Shown piece by piece: positions 41,758 through 43,263 of a stretch of DNA of 64,000 nt. The notes under the pieces were generated by a model. That model ran no database searches. It saw only the letters and a program-made list of their open reading frames with translations, and was not told the DNA's origin. The translations under genes were made by a program, and so were the position numbers. The stretch's first letter is position 1. Each line of letters starts with the position of its first letter. Origin of the DNA: an uncultured Bacteriovoracaceae bacterium (lineage in GTDB: Bacteria; Desulfobacterota; Desulfomonilia; UBA1062); NCBI GenBank assembly GCA_964572405.1, contig CAZNGL010000001.1:11553-75552 (forward strand). The letters run 5' to 3'.

Positions 41758-43263
41758 CTAGTGCGGGCCCCACCTGCCCGCAAGGGCCGTGGCGGGATCC
41801 GCCAGCGACTGGAACCGCACGAGCCGGGCCGTGTCCGTGCCCCTTATGGTGGCAAGCGGCATGATGCCCGCATCCATGATGGCATCCGCGGCTTCCTCGG
41901 TAAGCGCAATCTCGGCGCAGGGTTTGAGCTCGGAGGAACCCTGCGCCTGGTACACGTGCAGGGGCAGGCTGTCCACCTCGAGGACCGATCCGGGATGCAT
42001 GTCCCACCCGTCGAGCACGAAGGACCGTGCCAGGAGGTACGCGCAGGCATAGGCGGGGTTCCCCCACAGGTAGTGTTCGTGTATAGGGGGTCCCGTTATC
42101 TCCTCGAAGTCGAAGGCCTCGGCAGCATCCGTCTCTCGGCCGAACGGCAGGCGCAGGAGAAACCGCGGCATGACGAGCCCGAGATACGGCGCCTCCTTCA
42201 GGTGCCTGAGGTTCTCCCATGCGGCGAGCGTCTCGGGATCGGGGAAGCTCTTCCAGGAGGCAGGGTACGGGTTGCCCTCCAGGGACGTACACCCCACCAG
42301 GCACGGCTGGGCCCGGGCGATGAAGGGCGCGCCGGCGGCGGCGGCAACCCTGGCCATGCTGCCCAGGGTGGATGCATCCTGGTGCCCGAAGCCATAGTCT
42401 CCGATGAGGACGGCCCATGGCTTGTCCCTGGCATCCTCCACGAGCAGGTGGTACACGCCGGTACGGCTCAGGTCCTCGTGTGCGGCGAGGTCGGAGGCGA
42501 GCTCCCGGGCAGAGACGTCGAGGAGGCAGATCTGCAGGGTCTCGTCCGTCTCGATGCGGGAGCAGAGGAACTGCACGCCGCGCCAGGACGCCTCCAGGGT
42601 CTGGAACGACGGGTGGTGCATGACCTCGGCCATGAGGTCCGAGACGGTCCTGTCCAGGACAGCGGTGAGCCGGGCCTGCTCCGGGTCTTCCCGGGCCACG
42701 AGGTGGGGCCTGACCACGGCGGCGAGGAAGGCGTCCATGTCCGGGCCCCCGACCCCTTCCTTTCCGCCCCCGGCCGATGCCTCGCCCACCATGAGATCCA
42801 GCAGGCTGCCGGACGGAGACGGCCGAGGTTCACGGTCCTGCACGACGGCCTGCCCCGCTTCTCCGGTGATCCCCTGCAGCGCCTTCAGGGCGGACTGGAA
42901 GGTCCTGGTGTCCTGGAGCCGGTCTCTCACGTCCCTGAGGGCCTTGAAGACCCCGATTCTCCTGAACAGGTGATCCGGGTGAAAGTCGTCGAGCCCTCCA
43001 AAGCTCACGTTGAGGCCTTCGCCCCCAGATTCGAGCCTCAGACGCACCTTCATCCGCGCAAGCACCTCGTCCACGGTGTCCCGGTCCACGGGGACAGGCG
43101 CGCGTCCCCCCAGGGGTTCGACGACCCCCCGGGACGTCCGGCCGCTGAAATCGCCCAGAATGCAGATCCGGAACGGGGCGTCCTGCGCTGGACGGGCCCG
43201 CGCACCATCCATGGACGAGACCAGCTCCACGCCCAGGGAACCGAACGATATGGGTTTCTTCAT
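41758..43263 (-). CDS. Fused TssB-TssC-like sheath paralog (single 501-aa polypeptide, TssC C-terminal domain absent)
   Basis: Residues ~20-130 align to the local TssB: PFRICILGDFSG/DRD/DDFHP vs PFVVGVLGDFSG/DRD/DDFHP. Residues ~200-500 align to the local TssC: VMHHPSFQTLEASWRGVQFL vs VMHHEDFQKLEASWRGLFYL; WAVLIGDYGFGHQDASTLGSMARVAAAAGAPFIA vs GALIGDYEFGNHPQDLSLLEKISQVAAAAHAPFIS; EHYLWGNPAYA vs DKYLWGNAAYA. It ends at about TssC residue 400. Confidence 0.7.
   Translation of the reverse strand: MKKPISFGSLGVELVSSMDGARARPAQDAPFRICILGDFSGRTSRGVVEPLGGRAPVPVDRDTVDEVLARMKVRLRLESGGEGLNVSFGGLDDFHPDHLFRRIGVFKALRDVRDRLQDTRTFQSALKALQGITGEAGQAVVQDREPRPSPSGSLLDLMVGEASAGGGKEGVGGPDMDAFLAAVVRPHLVAREDPEQARLTAVLDRTVSDLMAEVMHHPSFQTLEASWRGVQFLCSRIETDETLQICLLDVSARELASDLAAHEDLSRTGVYHLLVEDARDKPWAVLIGDYGFGHQDASTLGSMARVAAAAGAPFIARAQPCLVGCTSLEGNPYPASWKSFPDPETLAAWENLRHLKEAPYLGLVMPRFLLRLPFGRETDAAEAFDFEEITGPPIHEHYLWGNPAYACAYLLARSFVLDGWDMHPGSVLEVDSLPLHVYQAQGSSELKPCAEIALTEEAADAIMDAGIMPLATIRGTDTARLVRFQSLADPATALAGRWGPH

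Follow-up and report, generated by a model that had tools for sequence, protein, structure and literature searches.

A conserved single-chain TssB-TssC paralog lacking the TssC handshake domain, encoded beside canonical TssB and TssC in a T6SS cluster

The analysed window is a stretch of 64,000 nucleotides from an uncultured Bacteriovoracaceae bacterium (contig CAZNGL010000001.1). Pfam scans showed that positions 32585..63927 contain a T6SS cluster located on the minus strand, which is complete (13 genes). In the direction of transcription, the cluster contains genes for TssJ, TssK, TssL (59305-59976), TssM, TagF, TagJ, TssA, TssB, TssC and Hcp, followed by TssE, TssF, TssG, ClpV, a 255-aa ORF, a fused TssB-TssC paralog, a DUF5086 protein, a 103-aa ORF, one or more methyltransferase-like proteins, two DUF2169 proteins and VgrG. 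The canonical TssB (52411..52935, minus strand, 174 aa) was attributed to PF05591 (E 4e-63) and scored 210.6 bits with TIGR03358, above the cut-off. The canonical TssC (50908..52398, minus strand, 496 aa) contains the VipB and VipB_2 domains (PF05943 and PF18945) and scored 737 bits with TIGR03355. Pfam and NCBIfam therefore agree with an earlier sequence-only reading of the window, in which these two genes had been taken as separate canonical sheath genes. ClpV (44125..46761, minus strand, 878 aa) was identified by Pfam and by alignment of its groove.

The fusion gene (41758..43263, minus strand) starts with ATG and encodes a protein of 501 aa, which was characterized using the ORF list and translation, Pfam, AlphaFold2 and Foldseek. 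Direct reading of the sequence revealed an RBS-like purine-rich stretch, GGAGAGGGGAGGG (43265..43277, minus strand), just 5' of the start codon. The intergenic gaps around the gene are 11-67 nt long, and the next gene, encoding the DUF5086 protein, begins 11 nt past the fusion stop. Promoter-like and terminator-like sites were not found in positions 40800-44300, and an Rfam scan around the fusion gene gave no match. The fusion gene and clpV are probably co-transcribed, and the former is located just ahead of the spike and effector genes. VipB_2-like sequence was not found hidden downstream or in another frame; the DUF5086 gene and the 103-aa ORF are located there instead. The DUF5086 protein was also considered as a relative of the GNAT proteins whose genes adjoin the fusion in other genomes, but this was rejected because no similarity to them was found.

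Analysis using Pfam revealed significant homology to both sheath subunits, namely a T6SS_VipA domain (PF05591) in residues 26-121 (E 1.2e-12; 48.3 bits at a cut-off of 24) and a VipB N-domain (PF05943) in residues 200-487 (E 7.6e-65). A TssB/VipA-like part is N-terminal in the chain and is followed by a disordered linker and then by the N-domain of TssC/VipB. The PF18945 domain (VipB_2, gp25-like), which occupies residues 380-490 of the local TssC, was not found in the fusion protein by Pfam. A BLASTP comparison with the local TssB showed 29% identity over 141 aa (E 6e-13), and the ILGDFSG, DRD and DDFHP motifs of TssB were aligned with the fusion N-terminus, as had been proposed. The similarity to the local TssC (34% identity over 329 aa, E 8e-54) covers TssC residues 49-374. 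The alignment with TssC suggested earlier is real, but it ends near residue 374 and not 400, and about 120 aa of TssC, rather than about 100, have no counterpart. The scores obtained with the NCBIfam equivalog models were below the cut-offs, both for TssB (TIGR03358, 45.8 bits against 97.25) and for TssC (TIGR03355, 211.2 bits against 271.5; model positions 53-355 of 473). Judging by these sequence scores, the N-terminal part is a TssB homolog and not an equivalog. The TssB-like stretch comprises residues 1-133 of the 501-aa chain, whereas canonical TssB is a separate polypeptide of about 170 aa. Pfam, BLASTP and the gene neighbourhood thus bear out the central claim of the sequence-only reading, that a canonical T6SS is accompanied here by a TssB-TssC paralog in one chain, from which the C-terminal domain of TssC is missing.

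Modeling of the fusion protein using AlphaFold2 led to a model with a pLDDT of 84.3 and a pTM of 0.83, whose fold matches solved sheath TssC chains. The best Foldseek matches were 5n8n_B, 5myu, 3j9g and 5urw (E 7.5e-22 to 5.7e-19), and the E values over the matched TssC chains ranged from 7.5e-22 to 2.5e-13. The TssB/VipA-like part (residues 26-133; 42865..43188, minus strand), delimited by PF05591, BLASTP, the family profile and the model, consists of strands interleaving into domain 2 and of C-terminal helices; the family profile matches the TssB chains 5urw_1A and 9n4v_B. The TssC/VipB-like part (residues 176-490; 41794..42738, minus strand), delimited by PF05943, BLASTP and the profile, includes domain 3, formed by the N-terminal helices, and the core of domain 2. 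It was modeled with pLDDT mostly >90, and its profile matched solved TssC chains with E values down to 3.5e-84. The linker between the two parts (residues 135-174; 42742..42861, minus strand) is hypervariable, with pLDDT <50 and a column entropy of about 3 bits except in an embedded motif.

More than 100 homologs with 45-89% identity and the same architecture were found, and the family alignment comprised 107 members with the same Pfam pair and 45-89% identity to the window protein. The survey of related genomes revealed the fusion in at least 582 species genomes of many phyla, so the arrangement is not rare. When the N-terminal 200 aa of the fusion were used as a query, 984 representatives of 50%-identity clusters were found at E<=1e-10. 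All of the 83 analyzed copies (83/83) share a common end point, within 11 aa of residue 498. Phylogenetic analysis showed that the fusion family is monophyletic relative to TssC (40/40 bootstraps) and that the window protein lies inside this clade. Over the same domain, the divergence of the fusion is about 2.3 times that of the co-resident TssC, which is consistent with a relaxed lattice constraint. The family is old and arose once, by fusion of tssB to tssC and loss of TssC domain 1. The window protein has the hallmarks of the family: VipA and VipB-N domains, an internal LLD-type motif, the end ...RFQSLxDPxxxLxGRW and a length of about 480-530 aa. An independent assembly of a different read set yielded an identical protein.

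The family has no name of its own, and its members carry the annotation 'ImpC' or 'contractile sheath domain-containing protein'. Full-text searches for fused, truncated or paralogous TssB/TssC revealed no description of it, in line with the earlier impression that such an arrangement had not been described. A preprint on Tvp was considered, but its subject is the DUF2169 genes. In the supplementary files on Geobacter T6SS expression covered by the analysis, Gmet_3316/3317 and GSU0435/0436 were absent; GSU0434 is unrelated and was rejected.

Both ends of the fusion protein are conserved. The N-terminal arm (residues 1-20; 43204..43263, minus strand) was recognized by column conservation and the profile and has the consensus M-x-K-P-I-S-F-G...V. 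In the family alignment M1 was found in 102/107, P4 in 99/107, I5 in 97/107, F7 in 102/107 and V15 in 95/108 sequences. The family profile joins the solved TssB chains from about residue 9-13, and we infer that the arm corresponds in position to the beta1 donor strand of TssB. Residues 12-22 have low pLDDT, as is expected of an arm without an acceptor. The C-terminal tail R-F-Q-S-L-A-D-P-x-x-x-L-x-G-R-W (41770..41817, minus strand), defined by the alignment and the model, is family-specific: R483, Q485, S486 and G496 are invariant, W498 is present in 107 of 108 sequences, and the tail was modeled at pLDDT 85-97. It stands in place of the link of TssC to domain 1.

The C-terminal domain of TssC is domain 1, the inner sheath layer, to which the acceptor strands of the handshake (beta11/beta12) and the C-terminal donor strand (beta13) belong (PMC5807055). 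The Pfam description of PF18945, the domain absent from the fusion, is gp25-like. The missing region had been taken for a part of the outer layer and of the ClpV-accessible surface, which is wrong, since it corresponds to this inner handshake domain. It is known that tubule formation requires the TssC C-terminus and that TssB forms a stable complex with the first 212 residues of TssC (PMC3597794). In the fusion, neither the acceptor sheet for the handshake nor the C-terminal donor strand is present, and the inner layer facing the tube is missing as well. Without domain 1, the protein is not expected to build or extend the sheath lattice, and a soluble 'protomer mimic' is expected instead. The sequence and model, the published sheath structures and the truncation experiments together indicate that the protein should be a soluble, non-polymerizing mimic of the sheath protomer. 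Its co-polymerization with TssB into contractile tubules around Hcp is not predicted, domain 1 being absent.

Alignment and the family profile revealed a conserved motif, G-S-L-L-D-x-[IMV]-[LVI], within the linker (residues 152-160; 42784..42810, minus strand). It reads SLLDLMV (residues 153-159) in the window fusion and GSLLDQI(L/V) in the family consensus. L155 was found in 107/108 and D156 in 103/108 sequences, and an LLD-type motif is present in nearly all of the 83 genome copies. The family profile places the motif region on residues 5 onward of the TssC chain 5urw_1B. The element of TssC that is recognized by ClpV is the N-terminal LLDEII helix (PMC4239648), and by its sequence the fusion motif is the counterpart of this helix; binding of ClpV is predicted from the motifs. 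The element that ClpV would recognize is kept in the fusion, as an LLDxII-type motif in the linker. The N-terminal motif of the local TssC is SLLDQII; LLDQI[IV] is present in the co-resident TssC of 22/24 loci, the remaining two having close variants. Alignment of the local ClpV N-domain to 3zri and 4uqw revealed an aliphatic groove with L6 and with V at the position of A86 in V. cholerae. According to this alignment and the classification in PMC4239648, the groove is of the class that binds LLDEII helices. The conservation of the LLD motif might instead reflect intramolecular packing and not ClpV. In Phaeobacter, TssC has an HsiC1-type EFANLL motif, and the fusion linker contains AFQQLI in place of LLD; such co-variation of the TssC and fusion motifs was seen in this one lineage only.

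Among the 49 fusion loci with >=8 kb on both sides, 35 contained T6SS core genes, and the recurrent gene orders were clpV-(x)-fusion-vgrG and fusion-tssB-tssC. Some strains have PKMT-like and DUF7059 methyltransferases encoded next to the fusion. In the other well-flanked loci (14/49), T6SS core genes were not found in the surrounding ~10 kb; for example, in Pyrinomonadaceae the fusion gene is located between mnmE and mnmG. These 14 loci make a partly T6SS-independent role possible.

All these characteristics allow us to assume that the fusion is probably a helper or regulator of the sheath and not a second sheath. Of the protomer layers, the single chain keeps domain 2 (middle) and domain 3 (outer), with the ClpV-docking motif in a low-confidence, probably exposed linker, and it would act through the contacts that it retains. 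By constitutive binding of the ClpV N-domain it could serve as a recruiter, a buffer or a preferred substrate of ClpV, and this engagement would tune sheath disassembly or prevent unproductive TssBC assemblies. The arm could insert into an unoccupied handshake site of TssC or TssE, and the fusion would then be a lattice-edge or terminating subunit. The motifs suggest that the arm may dock in this way; against it, every acceptor site for the TssB arm in the closed sheath ring is occupied already. We tentatively propose, as a reading with a fair amount still against it, that the protein is a T6SS accessory of single origin, a handshake-less protomer mimic that would work through ClpV and possibly through the TssB-type arm. 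It is rather doubtful that the fusion represents a third class of T6SS sheath component, common to much of the environmental bacteria and located at the sheath edge (growing or distal) or the TssE/baseplate interface with a permanently exposed ClpV handle and controlling length, termination or disassembly timing. If true, such a component would do for the T6SS what the terminator or cap does for the phage tail; to our knowledge, there is no T6SS homolog of either.

Several other explanations were considered. The exposed LLD motif could occupy the ClpV N-domain without any contact of the protein with the sheath lattice, making it a pure ClpV decoy or buffer. This is consistent with the conservation of the motif in the low-confidence linker, with the matching class of the local ClpV groove and with the location of the fusion directly downstream of clpV in many loci. 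However, a decoy needs the motif only, while the domain 2/3 fold, the arm and the C-terminal tail are strongly conserved too, and in Acidobacteriota the fusion adjoins tssB-tssC or is an orphan and is not beside clpV. We consider a decoy unlikely, and it seems similarly unlikely that occupied ClpV sets a threshold so that ClpV acts on contracted sheaths only. The location of the fusion immediately upstream of vgrG in many Desulfobacterota, Nitrospirota and Roseobacter loci, and the variable cargo-like genes, methyltransferases and GNAT genes that flank it, would fit a scaffold or chaperone that helps to load the spike and effectors, with the sheath-derived fold re-used to bind VgrG, PAAR or their adaptors and no role in sheath dynamics. 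Such a function is improbable: no sequence feature of the fusion suggests VgrG binding, the Terriglobia fusion is located beside tssB-tssC and not vgrG, and the kept ClpV motif and TssB arm would be left unexplained.

That the protein forms a second, alternative contractile sheath from one polypeptide, for instance for a second cargo as the sequence-only reading had considered, is very improbable, although the chain is homologous to both sheath subunits, arranged in the right order, and one Ralstonia record annotates a single-chain TssB-TssC that is full-length and has all three domains. The lost part is the handshake domain needed for polymerization (acceptor strands, donor strand beta13 and inner layer), and the ClpV element is kept. 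The TssC C-terminus is essential for tubules (PMC3597794), Pfam scans of the cluster found no second hcp, tssE or baseplate set alongside, and the evolutionary rate of the fusion is 2.3 times that of the lattice-forming TssC. Apart from the unusual architecture, nothing speaks for an artefact or a decaying pseudogene, that is, a frameshift or assembly error joining tssB2 and tssC2, or a functionless relic. This hardly credible explanation was rejected because of the independent identical assembly and the family conservation: the architecture recurs in more than 100 homologs, the stop is common to 83/83 copies, and a conserved family-specific tail and monophyly extend across many phyla. The check for a frameshift or assembly error proposed earlier was thus answered by conservation of architecture and end point.

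The fusion may represent a missing T6SS regulator or terminator. Sheath assembly, length control and ClpV recycling are known almost entirely from a few Proteobacteria without the fusion gene. A sheath-derived protein that is barred from the lattice yet keeps a ClpV handle in hundreds of species would be a natural separation of sheath functions. The database labels 'ImpC' and 'sheath large subunit' on such proteins can suggest two sheaths or two T6SSs per genome. The carriers include Desulfobacterota, Acidobacteriota, Nitrospirota, Planctomycetota, Roseobacters and others, and direct testing is possible in cultured ones, with the gene on plasmids of Phaeobacter, Leisingera and Ruegeria and on the chromosome of Methylobacter. 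In Phaeobacter sp. G2 it is N1037_22610 on plasmid CP104105.1, and in Methylobacter sp. sgz302048 (NZ_CP197401.1) it is located within 2231462-2252844.

A comparison with the TssB/TssC sheath heterodimer (VipA/VipB, HsiB/HsiC) indicated that both halves of the fusion are homologous to it: from TssB the strands and helices are retained, and from TssC the N-terminal helices, the core of domain 2 and an LLDxII-type motif. In contrast to the heterodimer, the fusion is one polypeptide with a low-confidence linker of roughly 40 aa, lacks the gp25-like C-terminal domain (the handshake and tube-contacting layer), has its own tail (...DPxxxLxGRW), scores below both NCBIfam equivalog cut-offs and forms a separate, faster evolving clade. 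Contractile machines place sheath-like paralogs or caps at defined positions, namely Afp2/3/4, Pvc2/3/4 and strand-completing cap proteins. The Afp and Pvc sheath paralogs retain the handshake domain, whereas the fusion has none; we know of no described T6SS-i equivalent of such specialized paralogs or terminators.

The nearest precedent is Agrobacterium TssC40, a different paralog. In A. tumefaciens, TssC40/ImpD (Atu4340) is needed for Hcp secretion and is non-redundant with TssC41 (PMC3702570), so sheath paralogs can be real components of the T6SS machine. Like the fusion, it is an extra sheath-derived paralog inside a T6SS cluster with canonical TssB and TssC. However, a rhizobial TssC40 ortholog (462 aa; PF05943 at 12-323, PF18945 at 333-442) has the opposite truncation: about 55 residues are missing from the start of TssC, and there is no TssB part. 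It shows 28% identity to the fusion and is nearer to TssC sequences by distance. Assignment of the fusion to the TssC40/ImpD family was rejected, given the opposite domain set, the low identity and the lack of grouping together. The 646-aa Ralstonia SL3022 CDS was also rejected as a member, being a full-length TssB-TssC with VipB_2 that groups with canonical TssC. TagJ/HsiE1 (ImpE), whose gene is present in the same cluster, is an accessory proposed to mediate the contact of ClpV with the sheath (PMC4239648). Both TagJ and, in the role proposed here, the fusion are non-core T6SS accessories, but TagJ has an unrelated fold (TPR plus ImpE) and binds the TssB N-terminus, whereas the fusion resembles a ClpV substrate. 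In engineered C-terminally truncated HsiB1-HsiC1, TssB and an N-terminal TssC fragment are stable together and tubules are no longer made (PMC3597794). The fusion is a natural single-chain analogue of these complexes, but it keeps more of TssC (to about residue 374) in covalent linkage and represents a conserved gene family with its own tail motif.

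The fusion gene (41758–43263) lies on the minus strand of the window, which corrects the sequence-only reading, and encodes a 501-aa protein from an ATG start, with GGAGAGGGGAGGG just 5' of this ATG. A Pfam scan revealed T6SS_VipA at residues 26–121 (E 1.2e-12) and the VipB N-domain at residues 200–487 (E 7.6e-65), and did not find PF18945 (VipB_2, "gpW/gp25-like domain"), which is present in the local TssC (50908–52398) at residues 380–490. In BLASTP, the protein showed 29% identity to the local TssB (52411–52935) over 141 aa, with the motifs ILGDFSG, DRD and DDFHP aligned, and 34% identity over 329 aa to residues 49–374 of the local TssC. 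Both NCBIfam sheath equivalogs scored below their cut-offs (45.8 vs 97.25 bits and 211.2 vs 271.5 bits). The proposal of a single-chain TssB–TssC paralog without the TssC C-terminal domain was thus confirmed, and the protein is homologous to both subunits. The truncation is real, but it had been placed at about residue 400 of TssC with about 100 aa gone; the match ends near residue 374 and about 120 aa are missing. In the databases, members of the family are labeled "ImpC", "contractile sheath large subunit" or "contractile sheath domain-containing protein". The fusion fails the defining features of TssC, having no domain 1 and equivalog scores under the cut-offs, and filing it under "sheath large subunit" should be avoided.

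Modeling of the fusion using AlphaFold2 gave a mean pLDDT of 84.3 and a pTM of 0.83, and the best PDB matches of the model were TssC chains of the P. aeruginosa, V. cholerae, M. xanthus and A. vinelandii sheaths. The family profile matches solved TssB chains from about residue 9–13 on, and the TssC chain 5urw_1B from its residue 5. Parts of the protein were assigned according to published domain definitions (PMC5807055). Residues 1–20 form a conserved arm (MxKPISFG...V) positioned where TssB has its beta1 donor strand, and residues 26–133 correspond to the TssB strands interleaving into domain 2 (the middle layer) and the TssB C-terminal helices. A hypervariable linker (residues 135–174, pLDDT below 50) is followed by the TssC N-terminal helices of domain 3, the outer layer (residues 176–236), the domain 2 core (residues 240–490) and a confidently modeled, family-specific tail, RFQSLADPxxxLxGRW, at the end of the chain. 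Domain 1 is absent. This domain is the inner layer, in which the acceptor strands beta11/beta12 and, at the C-terminus, the donor strand beta13 make the handshake network (PMC5807055). In experiments, tubules did not form without the TssC C-terminus, and TssB forms a stable complex with an N-terminal TssC fragment (PMC3597794). The sequence-only reading had taken the missing part for the outer, ClpV-accessible surface, and the opposite holds. The fusion thus reproduces the middle and outer layers of the sheath protomer in one self-contained chain, as is shown or follows directly from published structures and experiments.

The linker, otherwise unconserved (column entropy of about 3 bits), contains a G-S-L-L-D-x-[IMV]-[LVI] motif, with L155 found in 107 of 108 sequences and D156 in 103 of 108; a motif of this kind occurs in almost all of the 83 genome copies. 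In V. cholerae-type systems, the LLDEII helix at the TssC N-terminus docks in a hydrophobic groove of the ClpV N-domain (PMC4239648), and the linker motif is the counterpart of this helix. The local TssC carries SLLDQII, and co-resident TssC proteins carry LLDQI[IV] in 22 of 24 cases, the other two having VLDQIV or VLDRII. Alignment of the local ClpV to 3zri placed Leu at position 6, Val at the A86 position and Phe at 87, which assigns its groove to the aliphatic, helix-binding class and not to the charged ClpV1 class. In the Phaeobacter locus (L086), TssC has an HsiC1-type EFANLL, and AFQQLI takes the place of LLD in the linker of the fusion; in this single lineage, the swap suggests co-variation of the fusion and TssC.

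A Logan contig that was assembled independently encodes exactly this protein, followed by the same genes. A homolog search returned 1938 matches; nearly all of the best 120 of these were 480–540 aa long, and with one exception the 120 share the Pfam pair of the fusion, even at 45% identity. Searching with the N-terminal 200 aa (E<=1e-10) gave 984 representatives of 50%-identity clusters, and the full-length proteins in the best 150 of these 984 matches were about 480–527 aa long. The proposed survey of related genomes, in which each species was represented by one genome, detected the fusion in at least 582 genomes, whose lineages include Desulfobacterota, Acidobacteriota, Nitrospirota, Planctomycetota, Rokubacteria, Binatia, Gemmatimonadota and some Gammaproteobacteria, the latter with a complete Methylobacter chromosome. 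On Roseobacter plasmids (Leisingera, Phaeobacter, Ruegeria), the gene between clpV and vgrG encodes a variant of 636 aa; that of Phaeobacter sp. G2 (plasmid CP104105.1, L086 13875–15785) has strongly acidic low-complexity extensions at both ends. The chain ends within 11 aa of residue 498 in all 83 extracted copies. Fusions, including the Phaeobacter variant, split from all TssC proteins in 40/40 neighbor-joining bootstraps of the shared domain, and their divergence is about 2.3 times that of the co-resident TssC from the same loci. The frameshift or assembly error that had been considered was not borne out: together with a decaying relic, it is excluded by the independent contig, the family conservation, the common end point and the tree, and an artefact or relic is the least probable of all the explanations. 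A full-text literature search found no paper on the truncated fusion; most subscription journals were outside its coverage, so "undescribed" is provisional. The fusion is a real, widespread, sheath-derived T6SS accessory that has apparently not been characterized so far.

Among 49 loci flanked by 8 kb or more on each side, 35 contained T6SS core genes. The order clpV–(0–3 genes)–fusion–vgrG occurs in Desulfobacterota, Nitrospirota and Roseobacters, and kinase–x–x–fusion–tssB–tssC–hcp–tagJ–tssA–tssE... in Terriglobia. Orphan positions also recur, e.g., in eight loci of Pyrinomonadaceae and other Acidobacteriota at a conserved site between the origin-proximal housekeeping genes mnmE and mnmG-parA-parB, where T6SS core genes were not detected in the flanks (up to 10 kb on each side, less on short contigs). 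The immediate neighbors vary (DUF5086, GNAT genes, methyltransferases, ORFs matching no family), as do the genes intervening between clpV and the fusion. A DUF7059-type methyltransferase gene is near the fusion in 18 of 86 clustered loci, and in four Acidobacteriota loci the fusion is followed by a PKMT-like protein-lysine methyltransferase and then a DUF7059 methyltransferase. These neighbors hint at methylation of a T6SS or sheath protein. Another protein-modifying enzyme, a small GNAT acetyltransferase (about 156–163 aa), is encoded directly adjacent to the fusion in five Desulfobacterota and Nitrospirota loci.

The minus strand of the window contains a complete T6SS in the order TssJ, TssK, TssL (59305–59976), TssM, TagF, TagJ/ImpE, TssA, TssB, TssC, Hcp, TssE, TssF, TssG and ClpV. 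The long TssM ORF (55865–59794, GTG start, 1309 aa) overlaps the TagF-like ORF (55179–56228) by about 360 nt and contains the TssL gene in its upstream extension, which puts the real start of TssM downstream of that of the longest ORF. ClpV is followed on the same strand by a 255-aa ORF (43331–44096) without a Pfam match, whose counterpart in another fusion locus, L085, has only a faint Peptidase_C58 match, then by the fusion and, 11 nt 3' of it, a DUF5086 protein (41297–41746; 149 aa, hydrophobic N-terminus), which is clearly homologous to P. aeruginosa PA1645 (PDB 2xu8, E 3e-28) and is not kept in most other fusion loci. Next come a 103-aa ORF (40985–41296) with a weak HTH_31 match, which may form an immunity or cargo pair with the DUF5086 protein, and a methyltransferase-like gene (DUF7059 + MTS + DUF7782; 39430–40956). 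The latter is convergent with a plus-strand paralog (37898–39421), a pair also found in L085; the 516-aa minus-strand ORF at 37883–39433 is merely an antisense shadow of this paralog. From clpV via the fusion to the methyltransferase gene, the intergenic gaps are 0–67 nt, and scans around the fusion revealed neither promoter- or terminator-like sites nor Rfam matches, which is compatible with, though weak support for, co-transcription. Further along the minus strand (32585–37851), two DUF2169 genes on either side of a 290-aa ORF precede VgrG, which has Gp5_trimer_C and weak DUF6484/DUF2345 signals. This stretch resembles the Tvp/TvpA PAAR-chaperone modules (bioRxiv 10.64898/2026.02.23.707444), and no PAAR or DUF4150 gene was identified within the scanned part. 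Past vgrG, a likely threonine-phosphorylation regulatory module adjoins the T6SS at 25781–30811 (-). Its products are a 688-aa protein that pairs FHA with an SLT lytic transglycosylase domain, which is unusual for a TagH-like protein, and, besides, a PP2C phosphatase, a trypsin-like peptidase and a PEGA-domain Ser/Thr kinase.

Because the lost domain is the inner handshake layer and the ClpV motif is kept, the mechanistic picture of the sequence-only reading changes: the paralog stands and a regulator, cap or decoy is possible, but the lost and kept parts had been misidentified. We tentatively prefer a soluble protomer mimic acting through its retained contacts, the exposed LLD helix of which would engage the ClpV N-domain. 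Bound to ClpV, the fusion could serve as a recruiter, buffer or preferred substrate and so tune disassembly or suppress unproductive TssBC assemblies. Its TssB-type arm may also insert into an unoccupied handshake site of TssC or TssE, giving a lattice-edge or terminating subunit; since the acceptor sites for the TssB arm are occupied by ring neighbors in a closed ring (PMC5807055), such docking would be expected only at an incomplete ring or on TssE.

A pure ClpV decoy would use the same LLD helix and dispense with the arm, which is conserved in the family; we consider it rather unlikely. A scaffold for spike or effector loading appears slightly less probable still. A true second sheath is highly improbable for a protein which, as published structures and experiments show or directly imply, can neither build or extend the handshake lattice nor line the Hcp tube.

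A 646-aa CDS of Ralstonia solanacearum SL3022 (CP023017.1, comparison locus L087 6001–7941), which carries the annotation "type VI secretion system-associated protein", encodes a full-length TssB–TssC fusion with VipA, VipB and VipB_2, unlike the truncated one. It groups with canonical TssC in the tree of the shared domain and is the only sheath gene shown in its cluster; other Ralstonia records match the fusion query over its TssC part only. This CDS may encode a genuine one-chain sheath, or a sequencing error may have merged two genes. The nearest precedent for the fusion is TssC40/ImpD of A. tumefaciens, a protein required for Hcp secretion and non-redundant with TssC41 (PMC3702570). However, the rhizobial TssC40/ImpD ortholog has kept VipB and VipB_2, has lost the N-terminal helices and has no TssB part. 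Its truncation is thus opposite to that of the fusion, and a place for the fusion in the TssC40/ImpD family was rejected in favor of two different families.
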